From contig OZ245843.1 of NCBI GenBank assembly GCA_965228875.1, positions 3,764,616 through 3,828,615 of the forward strand: a stretch of 64,000 nucleotides of DNA, read 5' to 3'. This document shows, one piece after another, positions 8,252 through 46,810 of this stretch (its first letter is position 1; each line of letters opens with the position of its first letter). This DNA is from Thalassobaculaceae bacterium (GTDB taxonomy: Bacteria > Pseudomonadota > Alphaproteobacteria > Thalassobaculales > Thalassobaculaceae). Under the pieces are notes generated by a model. The model ran no database searches, was not told the origin of the DNA, and was given only the letters and a program-made list of their open reading frames with translations. The translations under genes were made by a program, and so were the position numbers.

Positions 8252-8271
8252 CCCGGTGTCGCGGTGGGGTG

Positions 8272-9498: not shown

Positions 9499-9527
9499 GT
9501 CACCTCAGGCCGGCCGGTCGCCCGCTT

Positions 9528-10355
9528 CTATGCCGCCACCGCGCCCGCCGCCAGGGCGGATTCGCGGGCCAGCACCTCGCGGGCCAGAGAGATATACGCC
9601 TTCGATCCGCTGCACGCCATGTCGTAGACGATCACCGGTTTGCCGTAGGACGGCGCCTCGGAGACCCGGACATTGCGTGGGATCATGGTTCCGTAGACCA
9701 CGTCGCCGAAATAGTCGCGCACGTCCGCCGCCACCTGGTCGGACAGGTTGTTGCGGCGGTCGTACATGGTGAGCACCACGCCCTGGATCTCCAGGCCGGG
9801 GTTCAGCGCCTTGCGCACCCGCTCGACCGTGCGGACCAGCTGCGAGAGACCCTCAAGCGCGTAGAACTCGCACTGCAGCGGGACCAGCACGGCATCGGCG
9901 GCGACCAGGGCGTTCAGGGTCAGCAGGCCGAGCGACGGCGGACAGTCGATCAGGATGTAGTCGTAGGGCGACGTGGCCGCGTGGCGCACCACCGCCTCCC
10001 GCAGCCGGAACTCCCGGTGGTCCATGTCCACCAGTTCGATCTCCGCACCGGAGAGGTCGGTCGAGGCCGGAACCACCTCGAGACCGGGAACCGGTGTGTC
10101 GATCGCCGCCTCGGCGATCGTCGCCTCGCCGATCAGCACCGCGTAGGAATCCGCCTCGCGCGCCTTTCGCGGGACGCCGAAACCGGTCGACGCATTGCCC
10201 TGGGGGTCCAGGTCGATGACCAGGACCTTCTTGCGGCAGGCCGCCATGGCGGTGGCCAGGTTGACCGCCGTCGTCGTCTTTCCGACCCCGCCCTTCTGGT
10301 TCACGATCGCCAGGATCCGCGGTGCCACTACCTGGTTGGTCTGTCCGTCAAGCAC
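9528..10355 (-). CDS. parA: Chromosome partitioning ATPase ParA
   Basis: NQKGGVGKTTT, DLDPQGNAS, IDCPPSLG. Confidence 0.97.
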   Translation of the reverse strand: MLDGQTNQVVAPRILAIVNQKGGVGKTTTAVNLATAMAACRKKVLVIDLDPQGNASTGFGVPRKAREADSYAVLIGEATIAEAAIDTPVPGLEVVPASTDLSGAEIELVDMDHREFRLREAVVRHAATSPYDYILIDCPPSLGLLTLNALVAADAVLVPLQCEFYALEGLSQLVRTVERVRKALNPGLEIQGVVLTMYDRRNNLSDQVAADVRDYFGDVVYGTMIPRNVRVSEAPSYGKPVIVYDMACSGSKAYISLAREVLARESALAAGAVAA

Positions 10356-10953
10356 GGCTCACCTCCTCCAGCCTCAGCACGACCCCCCGAGAGTCAGAAA
10401 TGCTGGGAGCCTTGGTGACAGCGATTTTCCAGGTGTTTCGTGCGGTAGTCAACTCGGCGTCCGCCTGCTCCCCCTTAAGAAACAGAAAGACCGTGTTTCC
10501 GTCGACGTATGGCTCCGCGTAGCGCAGGAGCTTGTCGACGGGTGCCAGGGCCCGTGCCGTGACAATACCGGCGCGAATCGGGCGTAGTGATTCGATTCGG
10601 CAGGCTTCGATACCCGGTTTTACCCCGGTCACCCGCGCCACTTCCTGAAGAAAGGCGACCTTCCGACGGTCGGATTCGACCAGAGTGATGTCCGTCCGGC
10701 CGAGAATGGACAGAACCATGCCCGGAAACCCGGCGCCGGACCCCAGATCCAGAACCGGGCCGGGAACACCCTCCATATGGCTGAGGAGTTGAGCCGAATC
10801 GAGAATATGGCGGCTCCACAGCTCCGGCAGGGTCGCCGGAGCCACGAGATTGATCCGCGACTGCCATTTTCGAAGGAGATCCGCATAGGATTCGAGGGCG
10901 CGGCGGCAATCGTCGCTCAGAGACAGCCGAGATTGGACGTCGTCGGGGGTCAC
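10348..10953 (-). CDS. rsmG: 16S rRNA m7G527 methyltransferase
   Basis: [28 protein letters not shown] start overlaps the mnmG stop. Confidence 0.95.
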
Positions 10954-12806
10954 GCCGCTGACTTTTTCACGTGACGCAGCAACGCGACCGTCGCCGCCGG
11001 CGTCATTCCCGGCAAACGGCTGGCCTGACCGAGCGTGCGGGGCTTCTCCCGGGACAGAAGTGCCCGAATTTCCGCCGAGAGCGATCCGATCGAGGACGGA
11101 TCCAGGTCCTCCGGCAAGGTCAGACCCTCGTCGCGGCGATACGCGCGGATATCCGCTTCCTGTCGGGCGAGATAACCGGCGTACCGGGCCTCCGTCGCGA
11201 TCTGCTCCGCCACCGCGATCGGGATTTCCGAGAGCTCCTCTGGCCACGCCGCCGTCAGTCGCTCCCAGGTCACGTCCGGATAGGCCAGAAGATCGAGGGC
11301 GGAGCGTCGCTGACCGTCCTGATTCACCGAGAACCCGAGCCGGGCAAGCGCCTGGGGCGATCCTCCGAGCCGCATCAGTGTTTCACGTGAAACATCCAGC
11401 GCCCGCTTGCGGGCCGCGAAGGCACCCGCCCGCGCACCCCCGACGAGGCCCAACCGCTCTCCAAGGGGGGTCAGCCGCAGATCCGCATTATCCGCCCGCA
11501 ACCGCAGCCGGTACTCGGCCCGGGAGGTAAACATACGGTAGGGCTCAGGCGCGCCACGAGACACAAGATCATCGATCATGACCCCGATATACCCGTCTGC
11601 TCGGTCTATATATAGTGTGTCATACGAACCGCCCGACGCCAGAGTAGCGTTGGTAGCAGCCACCAGCCCTTGAGCTCCTGCCTCCTCGTATCCCGTCGTG
11701 CCATTGATCTGGCCGGCCAGATAGAGGCCTGGCAGGGCCCGAACCTCGAGACTTGACGACAGCGCCCGCGGGTCCACGTAGTCGTACTCGATGGCGTATC
11801 CGTATTGCCGGATCACCGCGCGTTCCAGCCCCGGGATCGAGGCGACGATGCGATCCTGGACGTCCCGCGGCATCGACGTCGAAATGCCGTTCGGATACAC
11901 GGTCGGGTCGTCCAGCCCTTCGGGTTCAAGAAAGATCTGGTGGCTGGCCTTGTCGGCGAAGCGGACGATCTTGTCCTCGATCGACGGACAGTACCGGGGC
12001 CCCGAGCTTCCGATCTGCCCGCTGTACATCGGAGAGCGGGCGAGGTTCTCGCGGATCGCCTCATGAGTCGCCGCAGTCGTATAGGTGATGTGGCAGGGCA
12101 GCTGCGGCACCGTGATCCGGTCGGTCAGGGTCGAGAACGGCTCCGGCGGATCGTCGCCCGGCTGCACCTCCAGACGCGACCAGTCGATCGTGCGCCCGTC
12201 GAGACGCGGCGGCGTGCCGGTCTTCAACCGCCCGAGCGGCAGACCAAGTCGTTCAAGGGTCCGCGCGAGTCCCACCGCCGGCGCGTCCCCCACCCGACCG
12301 GCGGGCTTGCGCTCCTCGCCGAGATGGATTTCGCCGCGCAGGAACGTGCCGGTGGTCAGCACCACCGCCCCCGCGGTCAACGTCCGGCCATCCGCCAGGA
12401 CAACGCCGGCGCACCGGCCATCGACGATCCGCAGGTCCTCGACCCCGGCTTCCACGATCGACAGGGTCTCGTATTCCGCCAGCAGGTCCTGCATCGCGGC
12501 CCGATACAGGGCGCGGTCGGCCTGGGCGCGCGGGCCCCGCACCGCCGGTCCCTTGGAGCGGTTCAGAACCCGGAACTGGATGCCGGAGCGGTCGATCGCC
12601 CGTCCCATGATTCCGTCGAGGGCGTCGATCTCGCGTACCAGATGGCCCTTGCCGAGACCGCCGATCGCCGGATTGCAGGACATCACGCCGATGGTGTCCC
12701 GCCGGTGCGTCACCAGGGCCGTGCGCGCGCCGAGGCGGGCGGCCGCCGCCGCCGCTTCCGAACCGGCGTGGCCGCCGCCGACAACGATGATATCGAAGGA
12801 GGTCAT
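10950..12806 (-). CDS. mnmG: tRNA U34 carboxymethylaminomethyl modification enzyme MnmG (GidA)
   Basis: [44 protein letters not shown]. Confidence 0.98.
11379..11394. promoter_or_regulatory. parS site (inside mnmG)
   Basis: TGTTTCACGTGAAACA, perfect consensus palindrome. Confidence 0.93.
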
Positions 12807-12856
12807 GGTCTTGAGATACGCAGGGCGGCCGCCCCTGTCAAAGACTCCGCGCGCCC

Positions 12857-12872
12857 TGTTTCACGTGAAACG
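12857..12872. promoter_or_regulatory. parS site (mnmG-mnmE intergenic)
   Basis: TGTTTCACGTGAAACG. Confidence 0.92.
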
Positions 12873-12888
12873 GGCCCGCGCCGACCGG

Positions 12889-14223
12889 TTACTTGCCAAG
12901 ACAGAACTCGGCGAACAGCCGGTCCAGGATTTCCTCCACATCCACGCGCCCCAGGATACGGCCGAGCTGTCCGGCCGCGGCGCGCAGGTCCTCCGCGGCG
13001 ATCTCCAGCGGATCGCCCGCGTCCAGCGCGGTCCGGCATCGCCGTACCGCCTCGTGCGACTTGGCGACAGCCTCGCGGTGACGCGCGCGGGTCAGTGCGA
13101 CCTCGCCCACGCGATCCATCCGCGCCGCGACGGCGGCCGACAGGCTCCGCAGAAGATCCGGTAGGCCGTCGCCCGACCGGACCGACACGCCGAGCCAGGG
13201 CGACGGGATTTCGCCACCCACGACGTCGGTCTTGGTGGCGATCGCCAGACTGTCCGGTCCGAGAAGGTGCGCCACAGCCCGGCGCCCGGCGTCGCCCGAC
13301 TGCGCGTCGGCCAGAACCAGGGTCAGGTCGGCCGCCTCGGCCCGCTCGAGGGCCCGGCGCACGCCTTCCGCCTCGACCGTGTCATCGGTCTCCCGCAATC
13401 CGGCCGTATCCGCCACAGTGGCCGCGTAACCGTCGATATCCAGGTGAACCTCAAGCACGTCGCGGGTCGTGCCGGCAGTTGCACTGACAATCGCTACTTC
13501 CCTTTGTGCCAACCAGTTAAGGAGAGAAGACTTACCCGCGTTCGGCACTCCCACAAGCGCGATCCGCACGCCGTCGCGAACCCGCTCCGCCCGCCGGCCG
13601 TCGGTCAGTGCCGCCGCCATTTCCGCGGCCAGGCCATCGAGATCTCCGCAGATCCGCGCCAGAAGATCCTCGGGCAGATCTTCGTCGGGGAAGTCGATGA
13701 AAGCCTCGAGCTGTGCCATCGCTCCGACCAGCCGGCCACGCCATCCTTCAAGCGCGGCTTCCAGCACCCCGGTCGCCTGGCGGGCGGCCTGTCGGCGCTG
13801 GGACTCGGTCTCCGCGTCGACCAGATCGAGAATGCCTTCCGCCCGTGTCAGGTCGATTCTGTCGTTCAGATAGGCCCGCCGGGTGAACTCCCCCGGATCG
13901 GCCAGACGCAACCCGTCCATGCGCGCCAGGCGGTCGCTGATCGCCGCGACGACGGCCCGTCCGCCATGGAGGTGCAGTTCGACCACGTCCTCGCCGGTGG
14001 CGCTCGCGGGCCCCGGAAAGGCCGCCACCATGGCGTCGTCCAGCACCTCGCCATCGCCCGGGTCTCGCAGAATCCTGCGGGACAGGCGGCGTGGTTCCGG
14101 CACATCCCCGGCAAGCCGGATCAGCGCCTCGAACGCCCCCGGTCCGGAAATCCGGACGATCGCCACGGCGCCCCGCCCCGGTGCGGTCGCCGGCGCGAAG
14201 ATGGTATCCACCGCCGCTGTCAT
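12889..14223 (-). CDS. mnmE: tRNA modification GTPase MnmE (TrmE)
   Basis: DTIFAPAT, GVPNAGKSSL, GTTRDVLE, DTAGLR, C-terminal FCLGK. Confidence 0.97.
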   Translation of the reverse strand: MTAAVDTIFAPATAPGRGAVAIVRISGPGAFEALIRLAGDVPEPRRLSRRILRDPGDGEVLDDAMVAAFPGPASATGEDVVELHLHGGRAVVAAISDRLARMDGLRLADPGEFTRRAYLNDRIDLTRAEGILDLVDAETESQRRQAARQATGVLEAALEGWRGRLVGAMAQLEAFIDFPDEDLPEDLLARICGDLDGLAAEMAAALTDGRRAERVRDGVRIALVGVPNAGKSSLLNWLAQREVAIVSATAGTTRDVLEVHLDIDGYAATVADTAGLRETDDTVEAEGVRRALERAEAADLTLVLADAQSGDAGRRAVAHLLGPDSLAIATKTDVVGGEIPSPWLGVSVRSGDGLPDLLRSLSAAVAARMDRVGEVALTRARHREAVAKSHEAVRRCRTALDAGDPLEIAAEDLRAAAGQLGRILGRVDVEEILDRLFAEFCLGK

Positions 14224-14313
14224 GGCCTTATCCTGAGTGTCCGTTCTCATCGATCCCGAGGGTCGTCTATCGCCGACCCCGTGGGTCGTTGCCCCTCTTA
14301 CAGGGACGCCGCC

Positions 14314-14790
14314 ATGCCCGCCAGCGATCTCGACACCCCGGTCGGCCGGCTTCGCGCCGTGAGCGACGGGACCGCCCTGATCCGCGTCACCTGGCTCGCG
14401 GACGGCGAACCACCGATGCCCGCGGCGGACGGCGACGATGTTTCACGTGAAACGATCCGCCAGCTCGACGCCTATTTCCGCAGCGCGCTGACCAGGTTCG
14501 ATCTGCCGGTCGCCTTCCGCGGCGGCTCGGCGTTTGAGCGCGCCGTGTGGGAGGGCATGCGCGCCATCCCCTACGGCGAGACCTGGACCTATGGCGAGCT
14601 GGCGGCCCGCACCGGCGGCGTCGCCCGCGCCGTCGGCGGCGCCTGCGGCCGCAATCCCGTCCCCGTCGTCGTTCCCTGCCACAGGGTGGTCGGCTCGAGC
14701 GGCCGGCTCGTCGGGTTCTCCGGCGGCGACGGCATCGAGAGCAAGCAGCGGCTTCTCGACCTCGAGCGCGGTCAGGCCACATTGTTCTAG
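14314..14790 (+). CDS. ogt: Methylated-DNA--protein-cysteine methyltransferase
   Basis: IPYGETWTYG and NPVPVVVPCHRVV active-site motif. Confidence 0.92.
   Translation: MPASDLDTPVGRLRAVSDGTALIRVTWLADGEPPMPAADGDDVSRETIRQLDAYFRSALTRFDLPVAFRGGSAFERAVWEGMRAIPYGETWTYGELAARTGGVARAVGGACGRNPVPVVVPCHRVVGSSGRLVGFSGGDGIESKQRLLDLERGQATLF
14439..14454. promoter_or_regulatory. parS site (inside ogt)
   Basis: TGTTTCACGTGAAACG. Confidence 0.9.
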
Positions 14791-14800
14791 CCGCGGGGGC

Positions 14801-14845
14801 TTTGCTACGGTCGGATCTGCTACGGTCGGATTTGCTACGGTCGGG
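14801..14845. repeat. Tandem repeat, 3 x 15 bp
   Basis: T(T/C)TGCTACGGTCGG(A/G) x3. Confidence 0.9.
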
Positions 14846-14932
14846 GTCGCGGACCGGTCGTCGCCCGCACCGGAACGGCCGCGATCGTCGCCAAGAACCC
14901 ATGTCGGACCACGACCACATCAGGGGAGCGCC

Positions 14933-15628
14933 ATGTCCACCGTCACCGTTTCCGCCGCCGATGGCGGCAGCTTCAGCGCCTACGTCGCCAGACCGGCCGC
15001 GCCGGCCGCCGCCGCGGTCGTCGTGATTCAGGAGATCTTCGGGGTCAACAAGGTCATGCGCGACCTGACCGACGCCTACGCCGCCCAGGGGTATGTCGCG
15101 ATCTGCCCGGACCTGTTCTGGCGGATCGAGCCCGGTGTCGACATCACCGACCAGAGCGAGGCAGAGTGGCAGAAGGCGTTCGACCTGTTCGGCAAATTCG
15201 ATGTCGACCTGGGGGTCCAGGACCTGATCGCCACCCTGCACCATGTCCGCGCCATGGACGGCTGCAACGGGAAGGCCGGCTCAGTCGGCTACTGCCTCGG
15301 CGGCAAGCTGGCCTACCTGATGGCCACCCGTTCCGACGCGGACGCCAATGTCAGCTTCTATGGGGTCGGCCTGGACGAGCTGATCGGCGAAGCCGGCAAC
15401 ATCTCCCGGCCCTATCTCTGTCACGTCGCCGAGAAGGACGGCTTCGTCCCGAAAGAGGCGCAGGACGTGTTCGTTCCCGTCCTCGAGGGTGTCCCGAAGG
15501 CTACCGTCCACGTCTATGCCGGTCAGGACCACGCTTTCGCCCGCGTCGGCGGCCAGCATTACGATCAGGCGTCGGCCGATCTCGCGAACGGCCGAACCGC
15601 CGACTTCTTCAAGGCCAACCTGGCCTAG
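14933..15628 (+). CDS. Dienelactone hydrolase family protein
   Basis: VIQEIFGVN, GYCLGG nucleophile motif, HAFAR. Confidence 0.93.
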   Translation: MSTVTVSAADGGSFSAYVARPAAPAAAAVVVIQEIFGVNKVMRDLTDAYAAQGYVAICPDLFWRIEPGVDITDQSEAEWQKAFDLFGKFDVDLGVQDLIATLHHVRAMDGCNGKAGSVGYCLGGKLAYLMATRSDADANVSFYGVGLDELIGEAGNISRPYLCHVAEKDGFVPKEAQDVFVPVLEGVPKATVHVYAGQDHAFARVGGQHYDQASADLANGRTADFFKANLA

Positions 15629-15763
15629 GGCGGTCGGAACCGACGCCCACCCCATAATCAGGCGCGGACCGGCACGGCAGTGGTGCCGGCGCGGGTGCTT
15701 CCCCGCCCCGCGCCCCTATCGTAGCCAAGCGTCACGACACTATCGAACAGGGAGGACAATTCC

Positions 15764-16738
15764 ATGGTGAAAGCCATCCGCATGCACGAGCAGGGCGGCC
15801 CCGAGGTCATGAAACTCGAGGACGTCGACCTGCCGGCGCCCGAGGCCGGTCAGATTCAGATCCGGCACTCGGCGATCGGCCTGAACTACATCGACACCTA
15901 TCACCGCTCCGGCCTGTACCCTCTGCCCCTGCCCTCGGGCATCGGCATGGAGGCCGCCGGAACCGTCGCGGCCGTCGGCGACGGCGTCACGGATTTCGCG
16001 GAGGGCGACCGTGTGGCCTATGCCGCTCCGCCTCCCGGCTCCTATGCCGAGGCGCGGAACCTCGAGGCGAGCAAGGTGGTGAAGGTCCCGGCCTCGGTCA
16101 GCGACAAGCTGGCCGCGGCGATGATGCTTCAGGGCATGACAGTTCAGTACCTGATCCGTCAGATCTACAAGGTGGGCCCGGGCGATACGATCCTCATCCA
16201 CGCGGCCGCCGGCGGCGTCGGCCTGATCCTGTGCCAGTGGGCCAAACATCTGGGCGCCTCGGTCATCGGTACGGTCGGCTCGGACGAGAAGGCGGAGCTA
16301 GCGCGCAAGAACGGCTGCGACCACCCGATCGTCTACACCCGCGAGAACTTCGTCGACCGGGTGATCGAGATCACCGACGGCAAGAAGGTCCCCGTGGTCT
16401 ATGACTCCATCGGCAAGGACACCTGGCCCGCCAGCCTCGACTGCATCGCGCCGACCGGCATGATGGTCAGCTTCGGTCAGGCATCGGGTCCGATCCCGCC
16501 GGTCGATCTCGGCATTTTCGCCGGAAAGGGTTCTCTGAAGTTCACCCGGCCGACCCTGATGACCTACACCGCCACGAAGGAGCTGCTCGACGCCTCCGCG
16601 GCCGATCTGTTCGACGTCGTCGGCAAGGGCGCGGTCAGCGTGTCGATCAATCAGGAGTACGCCCTGGCCGATGCGGTCCAGGCACATGTCGATCTGGAAG
16701 GGCGCAAGACCACCGGCTCGACCATTCTGCTGCCGTAA
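15764..16738 (+). CDS. qor: NADPH:quinone oxidoreductase
   Basis: GLNYIDTYHRSGLYP, HAAAGGVGL, RKTTGS. Confidence 0.92.
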   Translation: MVKAIRMHEQGGPEVMKLEDVDLPAPEAGQIQIRHSAIGLNYIDTYHRSGLYPLPLPSGIGMEAAGTVAAVGDGVTDFAEGDRVAYAAPPPGSYAEARNLEASKVVKVPASVSDKLAAAMMLQGMTVQYLIRQIYKVGPGDTILIHAAAGGVGLILCQWAKHLGASVIGTVGSDEKAELARKNGCDHPIVYTRENFVDRVIEITDGKKVPVVYDSIGKDTWPASLDCIAPTGMMVSFGQASGPIPPVDLGIFAGKGSLKFTRPTLMTYTATKELLDASAADLFDVVGKGAVSVSINQEYALADAVQAHVDLEGRKTTGSTILLP

Positions 16739-16748
16739 CGAGGCGAAG

Positions 16749-16764
16749 TGTTTCACGTGAAACA
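16749..16764. promoter_or_regulatory. parS site
   Basis: TGTTTCACGTGAAACA within a perfect 20-bp palindrome at 16747-16766. Confidence 0.93.
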
Positions 16765-16829
16765 CTGAATCCCGGACCAACCTATGACGTCCCCGACCGC
16801 CATCGCGGTCGGGGCCAGGACGGTGCCCC

Positions 16830-17207
16830 ATGGAAAAAGAGACGTTCGACGCCTTCTGCGGCTCGCTTCCGGCCACCTTCCACGTCGTCCAATGGGGTGG
16901 CGCGACCGTGTGGAAGGTCGGCAACGCCGAGCAGAGCAAGGTCTTCGCCATCGCGGGCTGGCAGACCGGCGACCACCCCGCCTACACCTTCAAGGTCTCT
17001 CCAGTCGCCTATGAGATGCTGCGGGAGGAGCCGGGACTGCGTCCCGCGCCCTACCTGGCGTCCCGAGGCATGAAATGGATCCAGCAGTTCGGCCCGCCCG
17101 GGCTTTCCGATCCGGACCTTCGCGCCTACCTCCAGGAATCCCACCGGCTGGTCGCGCGCGGACTGACGAAGAAACTGCAGCGCGCGCTCGGTCTCGCTTC
17201 AGGCTGA
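16830..17207 (+). CDS. MmcQ/YjbR family DNA-binding protein
   Basis: VQWGGATVWKVG..KVFA, PAPYLASRGMKW. Confidence 0.85.
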   Translation: MEKETFDAFCGSLPATFHVVQWGGATVWKVGNAEQSKVFAIAGWQTGDHPAYTFKVSPVAYEMLREEPGLRPAPYLASRGMKWIQQFGPPGLSDPDLRAYLQESHRLVARGLTKKLQRALGLASG

Positions 17208-17243
17208 GATGGTGAACATCGCGATCAGGCGGAAACGCGCCGG

Positions 17244-18446
17244 TCAGTCCGGAACCGCGACCTGCCTGTTGGGATCGAGTCCCTTCGGCAGCAGCAGCCA
17301 CATCCGGCCTTTCGCCGCCATGGCCCCCGCCCTCTCGCCCGCCGCGTCGCCCGACCCCCAGAAGAAGTCGCCGCGCACCGGCCCGCGGATGGCGCCGCCC
17401 GTGTCCTGCGCCACCATCAGCCGCCGCAATCCGCCGTCCCCGTAGTCGATATCGACCCAGACCGGCACCCCGAGCGCGTGCCGCGTCCGATCGACCGCCA
17501 GCGACCGCCCCGCCGTCAGGGGCACGCCCTGGGCGCCGATCGGGCCGCTGCCCTTGAGCTCGCGGAAGAAGATGTAGGACGGATTGCGGTTCATGACCGC
17601 GTCCTGCTGCTCCGGGTGGTCGTCGAGCCAGGCGCGAATGGCCTGCATCGACATCTCCTCGCGCGGCACGTGACCGGCATCGATCAGATAGCGGCCGATC
17701 GGGAAATAGATGTGACCGTTATGGCCGTCATATCCGACCCGGGTCCGCGTGCCGTCGGCCAGGCGGATAAGCCCGGAGCCCTGGATGTGAAGGAAGAACG
17801 AGTCGATGGGGTCGGCCAGCCAGAGGAGCGGCTCCACCTTGTCGGCGAGCGATCCGGCCTCGATATCGGCGCGGCTGTCATAGGGTTTCAGCCTGAACCC
17901 GACCATCCGGCCGGCAAGCCGCTCGCCCTTCATGCTGTCGCGGAAATCGCCCAGATCGACCAGCACGAGATCCTCCGGCCGGGGGTAGATCGGGACGTCA
18001 TAGTTTTCGTCGCGCTGCCGGGACCCGCGCAGTTCCGGCTCGTAGTAGCCGGTGAACAGATCGTTGTCCGGATCTCGGTCGGAGGCGCGCCAGACCGCGA
18101 AGGACCGTTCCAGCGCGGCGCGGGCGCCTTGTGTGTCGCCGTCGGCCACCGCCGTGACGGCGTCGCAGGCCGCACGCCAGTCCCCCACGGTACCGTAGCG
18201 GCCGCCGGGTCCGATCAGCCGGGCGTCGTCGCCGCGAAGGAGCCGGGGACAGGAGCGGCGAAGCGCCGGAAGGGCGGCTGACGGATCGTCCTCGGTCCAT
18301 CCCGGCAGATCGTCGAACCCGGCCGGCTCGAGCAGCAGGGCGTCGTCTTGCAGCGGAGGTGTAGGCTCGGGCGCGCAGGCGAAGAGGGTCGCCGCCAGGG
18401 CGACGGCCGCGGCGGAGAGGACTCCGGCCTTACTCTTCGGGGACAC
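17244..18446 (-). CDS. mltA: Membrane-bound lytic murein transglycosylase A
   Basis: Lipobox LFAC, FTGYYEP, FFLHIQGSG, AQDTGGAIRG; GTG start uncertain. Confidence 0.93.
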   Translation of the reverse strand: MSPKSKAGVLSAAAVALAATLFACAPEPTPPLQDDALLLEPAGFDDLPGWTEDDPSAALPALRRSCPRLLRGDDARLIGPGGRYGTVGDWRAACDAVTAVADGDTQGARAALERSFAVWRASDRDPDNDLFTGYYEPELRGSRQRDENYDVPIYPRPEDLVLVDLGDFRDSMKGERLAGRMVGFRLKPYDSRADIEAGSLADKVEPLLWLADPIDSFFLHIQGSGLIRLADGTRTRVGYDGHNGHIYFPIGRYLIDAGHVPREEMSMQAIRAWLDDHPEQQDAVMNRNPSYIFFRELKGSGPIGAQGVPLTAGRSLAVDRTRHALGVPVWVDIDYGDGGLRRLMVAQDTGGAIRGPVRGDFFWGSGDAAGERAGAMAAKGRMWLLLPKGLDPNRQVAVPD

Positions 18447-19110
18447 GGGCGGCGACCAGCTCCCAGTTCGGATCGCTCGACCGGACATCGCGCTCGAACG
18501 TCCAGATGTCGGTGAGCACCTCGATCTTGTCCGGATCGCCGTCGACGACCTTGCCGTCGGCGTCGCGGGTGACCTTGACCTGCTCGGTCACGAACTCGAC
18601 CGTCACGCGGGCCTCCTGGCCGTCGAGTTCGGCGTCGGTGATTTCCGAGGACCGAACCGTGACGATCGTCGTCTCCTGGGACTCGTTCGCCTGCTCGCGT
18701 TCCTCGATCGCCTGGACGAAGCCACCGTAGAGCGGGCCGGAGACGAGGGATTTCAGGGTGTCCACATCGCCGGAGGCATAGGCCTGAACGATCATCTCGA
18801 AGGCGCCCCGGGCACCGACGGCGAACTCCTTCTCGTCGAAGTCGGGGTCCGCGAGCTTGATGCGCATCAGCGCGGCCGTGAGCGGATCGCGCTCGTCGAT
18901 CTCCTCGTCGTCGATGACCGCCCTGTCGGGGAGCTGGATCACGTTGTCCTGCTCGCTCTCGGCGGTCGCCTCCTCGGGCGCGCTGAACGGATCCGGTCGC
19001 TGTTTCTCGTGGCCGGTCCGGCGTCCGAGAACGCCTCTGAGCTTCAAAATCAGGAAGCCGGCGATCATCGCGTAAAGGATGATTTCGAAGAGAGGAAAAC
19101 TGCTTCCCAT
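18430..19110 (-). CDS. Tim44/TimA family protein
   Basis: N-terminal TM, LRGVLGRRTG, GARGAFEMIV, DIWTFER..DPNW. Confidence 0.9.
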   Translation of the reverse strand: MGSSFPLFEIILYAMIAGFLILKLRGVLGRRTGHEKQRPDPFSAPEEATAESEQDNVIQLPDRAVIDDEEIDERDPLTAALMRIKLADPDFDEKEFAVGARGAFEMIVQAYASGDVDTLKSLVSGPLYGGFVQAIEEREQANESQETTIVTVRSSEITDAELDGQEARVTVEFVTEQVKVTRDADGKVVDGDPDKIEVLTDIWTFERDVRSSDPNWELVAARVPEE

Positions 19111-39507: not shown

Positions 39508-39586
39508 TTCGTTCAAAACCGTCGCCCCGCCTTCCATAGGCCTCGTGGCACATAACCGGGTGTGCCGTCGCGAGGGAGGAGCGGGG

Positions 39587-40509
39587 ATGGCGGCGCGGGT
39601 GACGACGGTGGCCTTTCGCGGAATCGAGACGGTGGAGGTCGACGTGCAGGTGCATGTCGGCGGTGGCGGCTGGCCGGGGGTCGCGCTTGTCGGTCTTGCC
39701 GACAAGGCGGTGACGGAATCCCGCGAACGGGTGGTCGCCGCCCTGCACGCCCTGGGCCTGGCCCTGCCCCACAAGCGGATCACCGTGAACCTGGCGCCGG
39801 CCGACCTGCCGAAGGAGGGCGGGCATTTCGACCTGCCGGTGGCGCTCGGCATTCTGGTGGCGATGGGGGCGCTGTCGGTCGAGGACGTGGCCGACCGCAT
39901 CGTGCTCGGCGAGCTGGCGCTGGACGGCCGGATCTCGCCGGTGGCCGGCGTGCTGCCGGCGGCGGTGGCGGCGTCGGGCAGCGGTCGGCGCGGCGTGATC
40001 TGTCCGGCGGCTTGCGGATCGGAGGCGCGCTGGGCCGACGGCATCGAGGTGGTCGCCGCCCCGGACCTGCTCTCCCTGCTGAACCACCTGCGTGGCGTCC
40101 AGGTCCTGCCGCCGGCCGCCGAGGGCGTGGTCGAGGCCGAGCCGCGCTACCCCGACCTGCGCGACGTGAAGGGGCAGGAGACGGCGAAACGGGCGCTGGA
40201 AGTGGTGGCGGCGGGAAGCCACAACCTGCTCATGGTCGGCCCGCCGGGGGCCGGCAAGTCGATGATGGCCGCGCGCCTTCCCGGCCTGCTGCCGCCGCTC
40301 ACTCCGGCGGAAGCGCTTGAGGTCTCCATGATCCGCTCGGTCGCCGGGGTCCTGAAGGAGGGGCGGATCGAGCGCGGGCGGCCGTTCCGCGATCCGCATC
40401 ATTCCAGCTCCGCCCCGGCGCTGATCGGCGGCGGCATCCGCGCCAGGCCGGGGGAGGTGTCCCTGGCGCACCGTGGCGTGCTGTTTCTGGACGAACTCGC
40501 CGAGTTCCC
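39587..40509 (+). pseudogene. comM: comM (YifB Mg-chelatase-like ATPase), 5' part, interrupted by transposon
   Basis: [42 protein letters not shown]; the frame stops inside the IS left end. Confidence 0.93.
40502..40509. repeat. Target-site duplication, left copy (GAGTTCCC)
   Basis: Identical 8-mer at 44104-44111. Confidence 0.95.
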
Positions 40510-40609
40510 CGGTATTAGGTAGCAAATGCACCTAGCTCGGAGACTGGTTCTCACCCTCATTGCTGGGATGCTGTTCGCTGCGCTAGCGGGTGGGGAGGCG
40601 AGGGCGTCG

Positions 40610-41482
40610 TCAGCATTCGTCGTTGTGCCTGTTGGGGAACTCAAACGGGACATCGGTAACAGCGTTCTTGGCTGCTTCGACATGCCCCCCCTTCAGGTTG
40701 AAGGACCAGCAAGCGCGAGTTCGATGTTTGTCTCCGAAGACATCTTCGTAGGTCATGACGCAAAACACGTAGACCCGTTCTTGGATCAGCGCCATGCGGT
40801 GAGCGTCCCCCACGCCGTCAAAGTCCGCGAAGATAGCTTGGGTGGAAAAGCTAGCTCCAGAGGAGATCGTGTTCTTTGCTTCACGAAAATCCGGTTCTGG
40901 CAGTTTCTCTCCGTCGGGCAGCGGATAAGGGAAGGCTTCGGACACCGCCGAAAATCGGCAGTTTTTGGCAGGCGTTTGACCCTTATTGGACTGAACGACG
41001 TAGAGCAGCAGGCGTTGGTTTGGCATATCGAAGAGCACACCGCCTGGAGCCAAGGAAATGTAGGCTCGAAGTTCAGTCTTAGCGTTGTTGCTGGTGATTC
41101 GGTTGGCTTCGACGGCGGCATTCGTCGCCCTAACGGTGAGGAAAATCACGACCGCCAACGCCGCGATTTCCAGTATCGTCAGGCGGACTTGATACTTAGT
41201 CCACTGAGCCTGGGTTTTGGCCGCTTCGGCCATTTGCCGTTGCTCGCAGAGATCGGCCTCATCAGTGTTCTTGGGGTTCTCGCATTCTGGCCGATAGCCG
41301 CTGCTCTCACTCCGGGGCGCGTCGCCCGTAACCGGGTTGAGCGCCAAAAGCGTATAGCCTTGGTTTGCTTCGGGCTGATGATGTTCGTTGTTAGCTTGGC
41401 GGTTATCGGTCTCTTGGGCTAGGACACCCGTCGTTAGGCATCCCCCAAGTGCAATGATGAGCAACCAATAGCGACCAGACAT
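40610..41482 (-). CDS. Hypothetical membrane protein (signal peptide plus one TM), IS passenger
   Basis: N-terminal hydrophobic stretch, Cys pair, TM LTILEIAALAVVIFLTV, ELRAYIS then a beta-rich domain. Confidence 0.7.
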   Translation of the reverse strand: MSGRYWLLIIALGGCLTTGVLAQETDNRQANNEHHQPEANQGYTLLALNPVTGDAPRSESSGYRPECENPKNTDEADLCEQRQMAEAAKTQAQWTKYQVRLTILEIAALAVVIFLTVRATNAAVEANRITSNNAKTELRAYISLAPGGVLFDMPNQRLLLYVVQSNKGQTPAKNCRFSAVSEAFPYPLPDGEKLPEPDFREAKNTISSGASFSTQAIFADFDGVGDAHRMALIQERVYVFCVMTYEDVFGDKHRTRACWSFNLKGGHVEAAKNAVTDVPFEFPNRHNDEC

Positions 41483-41664
41483 TGCAGCATGAAAGCAGCG
41501 GTGAATTTTCCGCGCGATAGTTTATTGCGGATGTTCACCTCTTTTTCGGCAACGCCGATCTCGGCCAGTCGCTCAACCAGGCCTGCGTAAGTTACGCCAC
41601 GGCGCTTAAGTTCTGCCTTCAGGAGGTTGGCGGCTCGGGATTCCCAATCGGTTTTCTCGACCAT
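41434..41664 (-). CDS. Small XRE-like HTH protein (DUF6471-like)
   Basis: LLKAELKRRGVTYAGL..NIRNKLSRGKFTAAFMLQCL; divergent from the transposase. Confidence 0.8.
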   Translation of the reverse strand: MVEKTDWESRAANLLKAELKRRGVTYAGLVERLAEIGVAEKEVNIRNKLSRGKFTAAFMLQCLVAIGCSSLHLGDA

Positions 41665-41737
41665 CGTATCGCCTACAGTGAAAAAAGTACTGTAGACGTT
41701 ACATATGCCCTTGAACCCGATACGTCAACGTACCATA

Positions 41738-41757
41738 TCCGTTACATAGGTAACGGA
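41738..41757. promoter_or_regulatory. Palindromic operator candidate between HTH gene and transposase
   Basis: TCCGTTAC-ATAG-GTAACGGA; half-site CGTTACATA repeated at 41697. Confidence 0.6.
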
Positions 41758-41768
41758 GACAGTACGAA

Positions 41769-42722
41769 ATGGCCCAACACTTCCTTCTCAGCGCGAAAGC
41801 CCGGACCCTCTCGGTGGTCCAGGTGGCGCGTATGTCGGAAGACGAGGCGCGTGCACTGTTCCGTGCCATCCGTTGGGCCGACACTGACGGCGAGCCGGTT
41901 TGCCCGCGCTGCGGCTGCTTTGCGGTCAACGAGTACAAGTCCCGCCCGATCTTCAAGTGCAAGGGCTGCGGCCATCAGTTCTCGATCACCTCGGGCACGA
42001 TCTTTGCCAGCCGGAAACTGCCGGTGCGCGATATCCTGTTGGCGATCGCTCTGTTCGTGAACGGCGCCAAGGGCATGTCCGCTCTGCAAATGAGCCGGAA
42101 CTTGGACGTTCAGTACAAGTCGGCCTACGTGCTGCTGCACAAGATCCGCGAAGTGATGGCCGCTGAGACCGCCGACGCCACGCTGTCTGGCGAGGTCGAG
42201 GTTGATGGTGCCTACTTCGGTGGTCACGTCCGTCCGGAGAACCGCAAGGAAGACCGCAAGGACCGTCGTCTGAAAGAGAACCAGACCGGCAAGCGCCGTG
42301 TCGTCGTCGTCATGCGCGAGCGTGGCGGGCGGACCCTGCCGTTCGTGTTCCGCAGCGAAGACCAGTCAGTCGGCACCATCCGCGCCCGTGTCGCCAGCGG
42401 GACCACCGTCTACGCTGACGAGGCGTCGGGCTGGGATGAACTGCACGCCGCTTACGAGACCAAGCGCATCAACCACAGCATCGCCTTCGAAGACGACGGC
42501 GCCTGCACCAATCAGGCGGAAAGCTACTTCTCCCGCCTGCGCCGTGCCGAGTGGGGCCAGCACCACCACATCAGCGGGCGCCACCTGCACGCCTACGCCG
42601 CCGAAATGGCGTGGCGCGAGGATCATCGCCGCGTGCCGAACGGCACGCTGTTCACCGCCGTTGTGGACGCCGCGCTGAACGCCCCGGTTTCGCGGCAGTG
42701 GAAGGGGTATTGGCAGCGGTAA
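41769..42722 (+). CDS. IS1595-family DDE transposase
   Basis: Zn ribbon CPRC..CKGC, HTH, EVEVDGAYFGG, VYADE, TNQAESYFSRLRR. Confidence 0.95.
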   Translation: MAQHFLLSAKARTLSVVQVARMSEDEARALFRAIRWADTDGEPVCPRCGCFAVNEYKSRPIFKCKGCGHQFSITSGTIFASRKLPVRDILLAIALFVNGAKGMSALQMSRNLDVQYKSAYVLLHKIREVMAAETADATLSGEVEVDGAYFGGHVRPENRKEDRKDRRLKENQTGKRRVVVVMRERGGRTLPFVFRSEDQSVGTIRARVASGTTVYADEASGWDELHAAYETKRINHSIAFEDDGACTNQAESYFSRLRRAEWGQHHHISGRHLHAYAAEMAWREDHRRVPNGTLFTAVVDAALNAPVSRQWKGYWQR

Positions 42723-42804
42723 TCGCTCGACTCGCCAAAACCTGCCGATTCGCCACGCACATTAAAATGTTGACGCTTGCGATATGATCACTAATTTAAA
42801 GCCA

Positions 42805-42911
42805 TGACACCCCATCAGTCTCCGCCCGGTAGACGGGTTAAACGGATGGCTGATTATTAAGACCCCAGGGACGCCTATGGCGTCCCTGTATTCTTTGAAG
42901 GGGGGCACAAA
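42805..42911 (+). ncRNA. Candidate structured leader/ncRNA upstream of NYN gene
   Basis: Promoter-like TTGACG-N16-TAATTT (42770-42797); interrupted long hairpin 42814-42854; perfect 10-bp hairpin 42866-42888. Confidence 0.45.
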
Positions 42912-43544
42912 ATGGCCCAAGCGCCGCAAGTCTCTCAGCCAAGTGCGCCAAAAATTCGGTTGTTTGTCGATTTTTGGAACTATGAGCTTGCCATGAAGCG
43001 ATCCGCCTCAGGCTTTCAGACAGACTGGAAAAAGATCGGGCCGCATCTAGCAAGCGTGGCAGCGCAAATGATTGGAGCATCTGGGCAGATTAATTACCAG
43101 GGTATGAATGTTTATGGTTCTTACAACACAAAAACAGGAAACGACCAGCCATTGAAAAAATGGGCAACGACAGTTTTAGACACATTCCCAGGCGTTCATG
43201 TGACATTTATTGAGCGGCAAAAGAAAAAAAGCCCACCTTCTTGCCCTGCCTGCCATGACGCTGTCGAAAACTGTCCGTCTTGTGGAGTCGATATGCGCGG
43301 CACTGAAGAAAAAGGTGTCGACACTCGGATGGTCACAGACATGATGAGTCTAGCCTGGGCCAATAATTATGATGTAGCTGTATTACTATCTTCCGATAAA
43401 GATTTTGTGCCAGTCGCAGAGTTTTTGCAGACGCGTGGCATCAAAGTTATTCACGGTGCATTTCCACCAAATGGTGCTGTTTTAAGTCAAAAGTGCTGGG
43501 CGAGCATAGATGTTCCGGGAGAGCGGAGTAATTTCCAACGCTAA
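42912..43544 (+). CDS. NYN (LabA/DUF88, PIN-like) RNase with Zn-ribbon insert
   Basis: FVDFWN, EKGVDTRMVTDM, LLSSDKDFVP; CPAC..CPSC insert; low GC. Confidence 0.9.
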   Translation: MAQAPQVSQPSAPKIRLFVDFWNYELAMKRSASGFQTDWKKIGPHLASVAAQMIGASGQINYQGMNVYGSYNTKTGNDQPLKKWATTVLDTFPGVHVTFIERQKKKSPPSCPACHDAVENCPSCGVDMRGTEEKGVDTRMVTDMMSLAWANNYDVAVLLSSDKDFVPVAEFLQTRGIKVIHGAFPPNGAVLSQKCWASIDVPGERSNFQR

Positions 43545-43600
43545 TTTAGGCTTTCTCCACCTAATCGCTGTCCAAGCCAACGCCTGACCGCATCGAGCGC

Positions 43601-44035
43601 CTACCCCGCCACCCACTGCTTATACGTCCCCTCGCTGGGAACCTCGCGGGCTAGCCCCTTCTCGACCAGCCGATACAGGCACGCGCCGACGCGCTTGCGG
43701 ATCAGCGAGACAGCGCGTGCGTCGTTCGGGTCCAGCCCACGGCCCTTGACCACCTCGACCGCCATCTCCAGCGTCGTCAGCGGCTCCGAGGCGTTCCGGA
43801 GTGCTCCGAGTACAAACCGCTGCATCTCGCCCCTGTAGGCGCCGTGGCGGGCTGGGAACTGCTTGGGCTTGGTCAGCGATACGTCGAGGTCCGGGGCGAA
43901 CATGTGGATGCAGTGGTCTACGTGGTCCAGGTCGATGACCAGGTCGTTCAATTGCTGCTGTAGGTGCTCGATCCGGCCGGATATCTCGCGGCGCTTCTCG
44001 ATCAGTCCCGCGACTGTGTTGGGTCTGTCTGACAT
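43601..44035 (-). CDS. Hypothetical coiled-coil plus winged-helix-like protein
   Basis: N-terminal heptads (LIEKRREISGRIEHLQQQL); C-terminal VLGALRNASEPLTTLEMA..VGACLYRLVEKGL..W pattern. Confidence 0.75.
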   Translation of the reverse strand: MSDRPNTVAGLIEKRREISGRIEHLQQQLNDLVIDLDHVDHCIHMFAPDLDVSLTKPKQFPARHGAYRGEMQRFVLGALRNASEPLTTLEMAVEVVKGRGLDPNDARAVSLIRKRVGACLYRLVEKGLAREVPSEGTYKQWVAG

Positions 44036-44103
44036 GCCCCAAGGATACGAAACCGGCGGGACTCTGCCGATATGGGGCTAGGTGCATTTGCTACCTAATA
44101 CCG

Positions 44104-44712
44104 GAGTTCCCGCGTCCGGTCCTCGACGCGCTGCGCCAGCCGATCGAGACCGGCCAGGCGGTCATCGCGCGGGCCAACCATCACGTCACCTATCCGGCCC
44201 GCTTCCAGATGGTGGCGGCGATGAATCCCTGCCGCTGCGGCCATATGGCCGATCCCGCCCGCGCCTGTTCCCGCGCGCCGCGCTGCGGCGCCGACTACCA
44301 GAATCGGCTCTCCGGCCCGCTACTCGACCGTTTTGATCTGGCAATAGAGGTGCAGGCGGTCTCGGCGGCGGACCTGTCGCTGCCGCCGCCGGCCGAGGGC
44401 AGCGCCGAGGTCGCCGCCCGGGTCGCCGCCGCCAGGGCCCTGCAGACCGAGCGGTACCGGACGCTGGATCCGACCGGCGCGGTGCGCACCAACGCCGATG
44501 CCGATGGCGAGCTGCTGACCGCCGTCGCCGAACCGGACGAGCCGGGTCGCGCCCTGATGCGCCGGGCGGCGGAGAAGCTGCAGCTCTCCGCCCGCGGCTA
44601 CCACCGCGTCCTCAAGGTCGCCCGCACCCTGGCCGATCTCGACCGGGCCGAGACGGTGGGACGGGTGCACGTGGCCGAGGCGCTAGCCTATCGGGGGAAT
44701 GGGGGTGGGTGA
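44104..44712 (+). pseudogene. comM: comM, 3' part (begins with right TSD copy)
   Basis: EFPRPVLDALRQPIETG, AAMNPCRCG, SGPLLDRFD, LSARGYHRVLKVARTLADL; rejoining gives an intact 507-aa ORF. Confidence 0.93.
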
Positions 44713-44985
44713 GCCGCACGTATGTTTTCCATCCCGGATCCAAAAGCTGGCGGACCTTGCAGGCACGATGCTGTATACAGCAGTGTCGCGATCTGGAAGA
44801 GAACAGTAGCAATGCAGCTATTTCGCGCTTGCCCGTTGACGTCGCCTATACCGCGAATTACGTTGACGCATACAGCGAATCGGCACCAAACCTAGGATCT
44901 TAGGTAACCCAACATTAATTGTTGTACCCTAGAATCCCTTGAGCACAAGATATTGCGTCTTGGCACGCTCAACAGGGAGGTTCCG

Positions 44986-45246
44986 ATGTCGTCCCAAGCG
45001 ACGCGGAAAAGCAGGACCAGGGCCATGTTATCCAATTTGTCGACGAGGTCTAGCGAGTCCGACGATGTTGAAGCGACGGATGCTACAGCCATCTCTCGAC
45101 CGGAGCGCCGGCATTCTTGGATGGTCAGCGGTGTCACTCTGAGCGGCAAAGCTGTTCGTCACATCGACGAGCAAACTCGTTCTGCTGCTAAGCAAGCTGC
45201 AAAAAGAAAACTTCGGGAAATGGTCCGTCGCCGCGAAGCAGGTTGA
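44986..45246 (+). CDS. Hypothetical small basic protein (low GC)
   Basis: GGGAGG SD 5 nt before the ATG; 86 aa. Confidence 0.55.
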   Translation: MSSQATRKSRTRAMLSNLSTRSSESDDVEATDATAISRPERRHSWMVSGVTLSGKAVRHIDEQTRSAAKQAAKRKLREMVRRREAG

Positions 45247-45268
45247 CGAAAGTTTCGTGCACGAGTAA

Positions 45269-45850
45269 ATGCCAATTATGGCTCAATCTGACCGTGCACA
45301 AAGCCAAGAGGAACCTAGCGCAAATAGCGTGCCTGGCGTGCCCGGGCACGTGACGGATTTAGTGAATCGAGGCTTCCAGCGGATCGTCACTGATCCAGAA
45401 GATATAGAACAGCTAGTAGCCTATGGACTTTATAAAGCGGCTAAACACAAATGGGCTATTAACCAAAGCCCAAAGAAGGCTGAAGCAGATAACTATTATA
45501 AAAACGAACTTGCTAGCGAAGAAAAAATCGACTTGTACATGCAGCAAGCCAATCAAATGGTTTTAGCATATACTGACGAGCTAATTCGACGTGATATAAA
45601 GGAAATTATTACCGATTATCTTGAAGAAGAACATCTAGAAGATATCAAATCAGATTTAAGACAGGTGAAGACAAACTCTTCTCTGTTATGGAATGGCGCT
45701 GTTTCTTTAGGCACAAATATAGTTGCTTGGGCTTTAATTGTCGTACTTACTCTGATCATACTTGCGGGAATGGAGAACGGTATCAGCGTTCTCCCGACAG
45801 CCGCTAGTCAGAATGGCCAAGAACAAGTACCTGCCCCAGCAAAAGAATAA
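45269..45850 (+). CDS. Hypothetical protein with C-terminal TM (low GC)
   Basis: 193-aa ORF in AT-rich DNA; LVAYGLYK helix; TM IVAWALIVVLTLIILAG. Confidence 0.75.
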   Translation: MPIMAQSDRAQSQEEPSANSVPGVPGHVTDLVNRGFQRIVTDPEDIEQLVAYGLYKAAKHKWAINQSPKKAEADNYYKNELASEEKIDLYMQQANQMVLAYTDELIRRDIKEIITDYLEEEHLEDIKSDLRQVKTNSSLLWNGAVSLGTNIVAWALIVVLTLIILAGMENGISVLPTAASQNGQEQVPAPAKE

Positions 45851-45871
45851 TAAGCCCCACTAGCTTATACC

Positions 45872-46810
45872 CTACAACCGCCCCTCGATCGCGTCCCACA
45901 GCATCGCCGGCACGTCGATACCGTCGAACCGGCTCAGTTCCTGGATGCCGGTGGGGGAGGTGACGTTGATCTCGGTGAGGTAGTTGCCGATCACGTCGAT
46001 GCCGACGAAGATCTGGCCGCGCTTCTTCAGCTCCGGGCCGATGATCTCGCAGATCTCGTGGTCGCGCCTGGTCATCTCGCATTTCACCGCGCGGCCGCCG
46101 ACATGCATGTTGGAGCGGGCCTCGCCCTCGGCCGGGATGCGGTTGATGGCGCCCACGCCCTTGCCGTCGACCAGGATCACCCGCTTGTCGCCCTGGCGGA
46201 CCTCCGGCAGGTAGGTCTGCACGATGATCGGCTCGCGGAACATCTGGGTGAACAGTTCCAGCAGCGAGTTCAGGTTCTCGTCGCCCGGCTTGATGTGGAA
46301 CACGCCGGCGCCGCCGTTGCCGAACAGCGGCTTGACGATGATGTCCTTGTGCTCGTCGCGGAACGCCTTGATCTCGTCCGGGTCGCTGGTGATCAGGGTC
46401 GGCGGCATCACCCCGTCGAAATGCGTGACGAACAGCTTCTCCGGGGCGTTGCGCACCTCGGCCGGGTCGTTCACCACCAGGGTCTTGGGGTGGATGTGCT
46501 CGAGCACGTGGGTCGCGGTGATGTAGGACATGTCGAAGGGCGGGTCCTGGCGCATCAGCACCACGTCGACATCGGCCAGGTCCAGCGCCGCGCGTTCGCC
46601 GAGCGTGAAGTGGTCGCCCTTGACCCGGCGCACGTCCAGTTCGGCCGCGCGGGCGGTGACCTTGCGGTCGCGGAAGCTCAGGTGTTTCGGCAGATAATGA
46701 TAGAGCTTGTGGCCCCGCTTTCTGGCTTCCAGCGCCAACGCGAAGGTGCTGTCGGCGTTGATGTCGACCGGCTCGATCGGGTCCATCTGGATCGCGACCT
46801 CAAGGGCCAT
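45872..46810 (-). CDS. gshB: Glutathione synthetase
   Basis: [23 protein letters not shown]. Confidence 0.97.

Follow-up and report, generated by a model that had tools for sequence, protein, structure and literature searches.

Insertion into comM follows the lineage of a small tip gene, not that of the transposase, in a clade of IS1595-family elements

Most of what is understood about site-specific transposition by DDE transposases comes from Tn7-like systems, in which four or five proteins are required. The features of Tn7 used for comparison here are the TnsD/TniQ target selector, TnsC, TnsA, target immunity and orientation control. Simple insertion sequences (IS) are usually thought to choose their target via the transposase itself. 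Small DNA-binding proteins are known from some of them: InsA of IS1 and OrfA of IS911 correspond to the N-terminal portion of the transposase reading frame, and their binding sites are the inverted repeats. In the IS1595 family, the ISfinder subgroups with passenger genes are ISNwi1+/ISNha5. We analyzed a 64,000-nucleotide stretch of a Thalassobaculaceae genome (class Alphaproteobacteria; contig OZ245843.1, positions 3,764,616 to 3,828,615), hereafter the window, in which an IS1595-family element with a 144-amino-acid gene (p144) at its right tip interrupts comM. It is already known that elements with an integrase, and islands of the AbaR type, insert into comM (PMC4774983; PMC11441513). In the IS1595 clade of the window element, the exact comM landing site is predicted by p144, a separate gene, and not by the transposase. 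From comparisons of sequences, we put the chance that p144 is an element-encoded target selector or adaptor at about even.

The element is 3594 bp long (positions 40510–44103 of the window) and is flanked by the 8-bp direct repeat GAGTTCCC (left copy 40502–40509, right copy 44104–44111). A perfect 28-nt inverted repeat (40509–40536 and 44077–44104) resolves, when read with the flanks, into 27-bp terminal inverted repeats (TIRs) and an 8-bp target-site duplication. The left TIR (40510–40536, + strand) begins with CGG, and its consensus recurs in related loci; the right one lies at 44077–44103 (− strand), and together they form a perfect inverted repeat. The interrupted gene encodes a Mg_chelatase/ChlI protein, an AAA+ protein of the ComM/YifB type, and is broken within the DELAEF codons, which are its Walker-B motif. 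Its 5′ part (39545–40509, + strand; Pfam ChlI 4e-38, Mg_chelatase 9e-53, profile positions 1–119 of 207) ends in DELAEF. The 3′ part (44104–44712, + strand) covers Mg_chelatase positions 152–206 and has a Mg_chelatase_C match (1.6e-29) at 44209–44712. The DDE transposase of 317 amino acids (41769–42722, + strand) matched PF12762 (8.5e-42; 143 bits, cut-off 27), PF12760 (1.9e-11) and NF033547 (1.4e-44; 152 bits, cut-off 75), and has an ISXO2-like catalytic domain and an N-terminal zinc ribbon. With these domains, the 27-bp perfect TIRs and the 8-bp target duplication, the element belongs to the IS1595 family. The p144 gene (43601–44035, − strand) starts with an ATG at 44035, 41 nt from the inner edge of the right TIR, and points inward, where the initial annotation of this DNA had put it. 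That annotation had also likened its codon usage to that of the transposase, and the composition agrees: G + C content and G + C content at third codon positions were 0.648/0.855 in p144 and 0.649/0.833 in the transposase gene, versus 0.472/0.441 in the AT-rich NYN-domain gene of the element.

Tn7 with its TnsD/TniQ selector is the closest functional parallel. In both, an element-encoded DNA-binding protein (a role here proposed for p144) would guide a DDE transposase to a single conserved gene of the host, a less specific route would be used besides, and the selector module is exchanged between elements. Unlike TnsD/TniQ, p144 has only 144 amino acids, a predicted winged helix and no TniQ or TnsD domain in Pfam or NCBIfam. 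Among the five open reading frames (ORFs) scanned in the window element, no TnsC/TniB-like AAA+ adaptor, TnsA or heteromeric transposase was detected. Also unlike Tn7, insertion of p144 elements inside comM destroys the gene and occurs in both orientations, and target immunity is not evident. The analogy with Tn7 target selectors drawn in the initial annotation may thus apply to function only; as far as those five ORFs show, it does not extend to a TnsC-like ATPase or a TniQ/TnsD domain, and tandem insertions argue against immunity.

Within the IS1595 family, the window element is ordinary in its transposase (PF12762, PF12760 and NF033547), TIRs, 8-bp duplication and passenger genes, whereas its clade stands apart in that a second gene is conserved at the tip and comM holds a base-precise hotspot. 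Like InsA and OrfA, p144 would be a small DNA-binding protein encoded beside the transposase, as its predicted fold suggests; unlike them, it is a separate gene, usually convergent with the transposase gene, and has a lineage that goes with the target. Islands of the AbaR/Tn6022 type and elements with an integrase interrupt comM too, the presumed benefit being loss of a natural-transformation function (PMC4774983; PMC11441513). Those elements use tyrosine integrases or Tn7-like machinery and come from Gammaproteobacteria, whereas the window element has a single DDE transposase plus a 144-amino-acid protein, and the records of its type are titled Alphaproteobacteria or Proteobacteria/Pseudomonadota. 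It adds a DDE-transposon example, in the class of the window, to the recurrent disruption of comM by mobile elements. In literature listings we found no description of this element or gene, no paper on DUF6471 and no report of a DDE insertion sequence homing to comM; the IS1595 literature may already mention a conserved second ORF.

Relatives were collected as 129 loci with a p144 match, drawn from the window, 18 genome contigs, 30 species-genome regions, two plasmid regions and 80 metagenome contigs. They held 121 near-full p144 genes, of which 67 were at one site in comM (comM1), three at other comM sites and 34 elsewhere; 17 could not be placed. At comM1, the 8-bp duplication is GARTTYNN, directly after the Pro/Ala codon of DELPEF. 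Insertions at this site had 46 distinct flanks, with the p144 end toward the comM 5′ part in 24, toward the 3′ part in 17 and unresolved in five. The further comM positions, at about residues 255, 213 and 285 in window numbering, were used by one or two elements each: a second site at ..P/EALE (L062, plus the 220-bp remnant L081, consisting of a TIR and the first 40 codons of p144), a third at GQ/ETAK (L068), and a fourth ~40 codons upstream of comM1 (L126). Among 25 candidate TIR pairs, 20 were flanked by perfect 8-bp duplications, and two of the remaining five were alternative boundaries of elements that have one; many distinct insertion sites carry such duplications.

The sites outside comM were not look-alikes of it, a possibility ruled out by flank scores: all 23 distinct non-comM flanks scored like their own shuffles against comM-flank models (−14 to −69, with self medians of about +45). 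Nor are other sites used only when comM is occupied, as three hosts of comM-type elements (G129, G164 and G155) had an intact comM and the element elsewhere. In five loci (L006, L011, L064, L066 and L069), two elements, or an element and a remnant, stood end to end, parted only by a shared 8-bp duplication, and L058 had a further TIR, 48 nt beyond the outer one. Junctions of resident copies thus seem to have been hit repeatedly, and the origin of chimeric elements would be explained in the same way. Since several insertions abut a resident copy, there is no sign of target immunity.

To relate target to gene lineage we used 53 non-redundant elements (34 at comM1, 18 elsewhere, one at the third comM site), each with p144 near-full, the transposase full and the target known, after dropping five near-duplicates. 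Trees were quick LG+G4 trees unless noted. On the p144 tree the comM1 label changed nine times, compared with a mean of 15.8 for shuffled labels, and none of 300 shuffles was as low. A careful p144 tree also gave nine changes (shuffled mean 15.9, 0/500). The signal was present in both halves of the protein, with nine changes for the N-terminal half (mean 15.7, 0/300) and ten for the C-terminal half (mean 15.9, 0/300). The whole transposase (quick tree, LG+C20+F+G4) required 14 changes (mean 15.8, 101/500), and its first, middle and last thirds 15 (mean 15.7, 127/300), 16 (mean 15.8, 187/300) and 17 (mean 15.7, 261/300), respectively. For DUF6471, the product of a small gene divergent from the transposase gene in most elements, the tree of 43 sequences gave nine changes (mean 10.0, 83/300). 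In the same DUF6471-bearing subset, p144 gave seven (mean 10.0, 1/300) and the transposase ten (mean 9.9, 194/300). The comM label therefore follows the p144 tree, and not the transposase or DUF6471 tree; the correlation of protein clades with target genes, which the initial annotation had suggested checking, came out positive for p144 alone among the three. As a comM determinant, DUF6471 is ruled out, being absent from the comM-inserted L105 and L112 and having a tree without target tracking. A determinant within the transposase is not supported, with none of its thirds tracking the target.

The p144 tree has a starred split (98/93) between ten basal rows, here called pB, and 43 rows called pC. 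None of the pB rows was at comM1 (nine other, one comM site 3), whereas pC comprised all 34 comM1 rows and nine others. On the transposase tree the pB rows were scattered among pC, and forcing them into one clade cost 275 log-likelihood units (approximately unbiased (AU) test, p = 4e-52). The two genes have been reshuffled between elements; the co-phylogeny of p144 and transposase that had been expected of a core pair was not found. The type of p144 switches eight times on the transposase tree. In four independent sister contrasts, at starred transposase branches, the target went in the predicted direction in 3.6 cases on average and never in the opposite one. Three pB hosts (G188, G198 and G374) had an uninterrupted comM with DELPEF, so comM1 was available to these elements yet unused. 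The recognition helix of p144 was dominated by RKRVGACL-like sequences in the comM1 set and diverse in pB, and the DNA flanking comM1 is conserved. Because the TIR consensus is common to both lineages and the leader between TIR and p144 is unconserved, the comM flanks are the only conserved DNA that was found to go with the pC helix. The conserved pC helix thus appears to be paired with conserved comM flank DNA. These natural module swaps amount to built-in exchange experiments, and they favour a role of p144 in target selection.

As a target selector, p144 could work as follows. The pC winged helix, with its RKRVGACL motif, would recognize the highly conserved DNA that codes for the Walker-B stretch of ComM (..LFLDELPEF..). 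Dimerization, docking of the transposase, or both may be the task of the conserved N-terminal region (DLDHxD..RLFDP). A p144 of pC type would in this way bring the transposase to the Walker-B coding DNA of comM, where the element, in either orientation, would be joined at an 8-bp staggered cut placed precisely at GARTTYNN behind the Pro/Ala codon. In the older pB lineages the recognition helices differ, and comM1 would not be used. Where the comM route is not taken, elements would go to unrelated sites, often abutting a resident copy.

Prediction of the complex between transposase and p144, proposed with the initial annotation, gave a median score of 0.37 (runs of 0.00, 0.37 and 0.47), and the best of three controls scored 0.00. 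Agreement between runs was at least 0% and the predicted local distance difference test (pLDDT) score of the partners at least 70. When the method was calibrated, 116 of 157 solved complexes came up to the mark, as did two of 215 mismatches, but passes at or below 0.60 are more often wrong than right. The modelled p144–transposase contact thus receives weak support.

Several observations speak against p144 as the target selector. About a third of the classified copies (34/104) and nine of the 43 pC rows were outside comM, and the RKRVGACL helix was present in many of the copies at other sites. L156 and L157 encode identical p144 proteins, the first in comM and the second elsewhere, and of the near-identical L056 and L057 of one genome only L057 was in comM. 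The pC hosts with an intact comM and the element elsewhere belong here as well, as does L126, which has the pC helix at another comM position. Insertion orientation was uncontrolled (24 versus 17). Since the non-comM flanks score like shuffles, a second and unexplained mode of target choice exists. The sister contrasts numbered only four, for which the sign test p of 0.125 is the lowest possible value. The pB and pC groups were defined on the p144 tree, and the AU test was made when a first transposase tree was already at hand. Targets were labelled by hand from tblastn, TIR and flank listings. The sample was biased: the scans of genome contigs and metagenomes started from peptide patterns typical of the window's own, comM-type lineage, and the share of comM1 was 62 of 81 classified copies in these pattern-seeded scans and 4 of 20, plus the window, in profile-searched species genomes. 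The p144 gene and the adjacent TIR end are inherited together and inseparable by comparison. Finally, one of the three complex predictions scored zero. The suggestion of the initial annotation that p144 could direct insertion to comM is supported as far as the target follows its tree; the copies outside comM, and identical proteins in and out of it, do not fit, and the role itself is deduced from sequence comparison.

The strongest competitor, which we regard as unlikely, is that p144 is an IS-encoded regulator or inhibitor of transposition with no part in target choice. A winged-helix dimer would sit on the element ends or on its own TIR-overlapping promoter, repressing itself and/or blocking transposase binding, like small IS-encoded DNA-binding proteins elsewhere. 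The fold is consistent with this, being like the repressor domains of MarR, Fur, PerR and IclR, and the fixed start at ~68 nt from the tip means that the promoter must lie in or beside the TIR. A regulator could also be the sole gene besides the transposase in minimal elements, would be expected to persist if independently useful, as intact p144 does in transposase-less remnants (L003, L084/L085, L053/L054 and L073), and has no difficulty with the third of classified copies outside comM. It leaves unexplained why the target tracks the p144 tree rather than the transposase tree. Moreover, no conserved operator was found beyond the TIR, lineages with different recognition helices have the same TIR, and most elements already hold a divergent helix-turn-helix (HTH) gene, DUF6471 or HTH_3, in the classical repressor position. 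DUF6471 (or HTH_3) is a likelier transcriptional regulator of the transposase than p144.

Less probable still, p144 might be a general cofactor needed in all lineages, with a synaptic or architectural role or in non-specific target capture. The preference for comM would then be due to a host factor, to selection for inactivation of competence, or to something else that is passed on together with the p144 end. Basal lineages and minimal elements do keep p144 and use many unrelated sites, pC elements also insert at sites unlike comM, and the abutting and tandem insertions suggest that resident ends attract further copies. That mobile elements disrupt comM is known as a selected outcome (PMC4774983). 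Selection by itself, however, cannot account for insertion at one and the same base pair among 46 distinct flanks and both ways round. The p144 end brings no further conserved protein with it, and neither the three transposase segments nor DUF6471 tracked the target.

That p144 is a passenger with a host-directed regulatory function unrelated to transposition is very improbable: it has no known family and stands alone in a few loci, but it co-occurs nearly completely with one transposase clade, keeps a fixed tip position and distance, forms two-gene minimal elements and has the same composition as the transposase.

The view that p144 is a core gene of the element and not cargo, already put forward in the initial annotation, is very probably right. 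We searched 401 genomes of the class of the window with a p144 profile, then with the transposase, and fetched 20-kb regions. The profile matched in 25 of the 401 genomes. In the transposase search, which scored five candidates per genome so that further copies may exist, 20 matches formed a distinct clade (at least 43% identity, E ≤ 2e-78), the next IS1595 match being at 38% and 2e-43. Within the same TIR pair as the transposase, p144 was present in 19 of the 20, including a very divergent copy in G198 (E = 2e-8), and the contig of the twentieth (G059) begins inside the transposase. Two plasmid elements of 1698 and 1596 bp contained only p144 and the transposase, as convergent genes; their transposases are annotated "IS1595 family transposase" and their p144 homologues are distant. 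Another of the 19, a 16.6-kb member at the main comM site (L059; G146:C1, ~2315–18920), had p144 at one tip, and transposase and DUF6471 15 kb off at the other. In 16 of 121 copies p144 followed directly 3′ of the transposase on the same strand. The cargo differs among elements (NYN, orf290, Fic, DUF2321, HTH_3 and others). It is this co-occurrence, together with the two-gene minimal elements and the variable cargo, that makes p144 core. In L105 and L112 an HTH_3 or DUF2321 gene takes the place of DUF6471, so DUF6471 is dispensable for insertion in comM.

If p144 is the target selector, it could tentatively be the smallest known kind of transposon target selector. On that assumption, and with the same reserve, a swappable winged-helix module and one 317-amino-acid DDE transposase, with no ATPase, might suffice for base-precise integration into a conserved gene. 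Swapping or re-engineering the recognition helix would then retarget the element, and elements with two p144 genes, one at the tip and the other next to the transposase, would have two ways to a target, like TnsD and TnsE in Tn7. Whether a simple IS can outsource its target choice can thus be put to the test using two proteins, a pair of 27-bp ends and a target of 80 bp.

Two p144 paralogues were observed in eight loci, representing six distinct elements (L013, L108/L109, L127, L143, L146/L150 and L149). In these, the tip was occupied by a comM-type copy, while the other copy, very divergent (E = 1e-4 to 9e-9 against the profile), was convergent on the 3′ end of the transposase gene. All were at comM1. 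The arrangement would fit a basal-type element that gained a comM-type tip module.

Some loci had p144 and no transposase. L003, L084 and L085 are comM-inserted remnants in which, of the whole element, a single TIR and an intact p144 ORF are left and comM itself is partly deleted; in them p144 has outlived its transposase. L053 and L054 (G388:C1, 46.7 kb apart) had an identical flank, TIR and intact p144, without a transposase, and adjoined an HTH_3 gene and phage-like genes (lysozyme, long ORFs); they may be a duplicated or prophage-borne remnant. In the source genome, the transposase of the window element is single-copy, and one distant p144 paralogue is found at a second locus, L073 (G000:C1:2549000-2568900; 9666–10164 and 11101–12148). 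There the TIR, the 68-nt leader and the first eight coding bases (78 nt) were 100% identical to the p144 end of the window. Past these 78 nt the sequence changes abruptly to the paralogue (29% identity, 143 amino acids, intact), and no transposase is present. A second TIR in the same direction (two mismatches), an orf290-like gene and a DUF6471 fragment lie 1.4 kb on. L073 may be a relative that has decayed or been rearranged, and the start codon seems to mark a sharp boundary of recombination.

No family was recognized for p144 in Pfam, NCBIfam (E ≤ 0.1) or PADLOC, and PHROGs gave one weak row (E = 0.07). Relatives in the ESM Atlas were only in "hypothetical protein" clusters without a common Pfam family, and homologues are called hypothetical wherever a source names them. 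Among 173 candidates (90% clusters), 141 were homologues at E ≤ 1e-3, and clustering at 50% identity gave 1461 clusters at E ≤ 1e-3, including 364 at ≤1e-10, which defines a large protein family without a Pfam or NCBIfam model. In a sample of 401 genomes of the phylum, p144 matched in 12. Of these, 11 were of the class of the window and the remaining match was weak (E = 9e-6), so that the family seems limited to that class. The ratio of nonsynonymous to synonymous substitution rates was 0.14–0.28 in seven pairs; a distant pair gave 0.54 and another was saturated. Judged by these ratios, p144 is under purifying selection. Because of the low ratios and the many homologues, it is more than a chance ORF.

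The AlphaFold2 model of p144 (38-row alignment, mean pLDDT 87.4) had a helix at residues 5–46, a linker, and then three helices with a beta hairpin. With VIA-align, residues 65–144 matched winged helices, with a top Z of 10.1 for 1ku9_B (root-mean-square deviation 3.3 over 66 residues) and 74 chains at Z ≥ 8, of the MarR, PerR, Fur, IclR and Z-alpha types. The C-terminal winged helix-turn-helix anticipated from the sequence pattern is thus borne out by the model, and p144 is predicted to be a DNA-binding protein with a winged-helix fold and a long N-terminal helix. The N-terminal coiled coil also anticipated there would lie in this helix, which is a single one in the monomer model. The recognition helix of the window p144, a pC protein, reads RKRVGACL. 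Foldseek against the PDB gave no match at E ≤ 1e-3 (best E = 5e-3), and the N-terminal helix had no informative structural match, the VIA-align comparison covering residues 65–144 only. To MarR, Fur, PerR and IclR regulators the likeness is one of fold (Z 8.4–10.1 for residues 65–144); p144 differs from them in having no sequence-family match (that of MarR in Pfam included), a putative dimerization element consisting of a 42-residue N-terminal helix, and a place at a transposon end. Identity between lineages was 0.31 in the N-terminal helix versus 0.24 in the recognition helix, a gap too small to argue from.

The start of p144 is at a fixed distance from the tip. Among 87 copies with a TIR found within 320 nt, the ATG was 67–70 nt from the element tip in 62 and 58–59 nt in six. 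At 31 distinct ends, conservation was 0.35 bits per position in the leader versus 1.48 in the TIR. A TAnnnT-like box was found 10–16 nt before the ATG, with no Shine-Dalgarno-like run ahead of it. In the window, the 41-nt leader from TIR to ATG (44036–44076, − strand) has the box as TATCCT, 10–15 nt before the ATG, and lacks a Shine-Dalgarno-like purine run; a sigma-70 consensus scan found no promoter upstream of p144. The p144 mRNA is possibly leaderless, to judge from these upstream signals.

Three further genes are carried by the window element. The DUF6471 gene (41434–41664, − strand; 76 amino acids; PF20075, 6.6e-32) is divergent from the transposase gene and has a G + C content of 0.537. 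The passenger gene orf290 (40610–41482, − strand; G + C content 0.558) had no Pfam or NCBIfam family; tblastn found orf290-like matches of 24–32% identity in L004, L011, L057, L058, L064, L086 and L117, and in several relatives it stands beside DUF6471. The NYN-domain passenger gene (42912–43544, + strand; PF01936, 2.2e-15) also matched the PADLOC model HEC-09, a candidate defence family (1.3e-10). Just 3′ of comM, at 44900–45900, the G + C content falls to 0.46–0.51 from ~0.67 for the window. This stretch contains an ORF of 193 amino acids (45269–45850) and may be another foreign insert.

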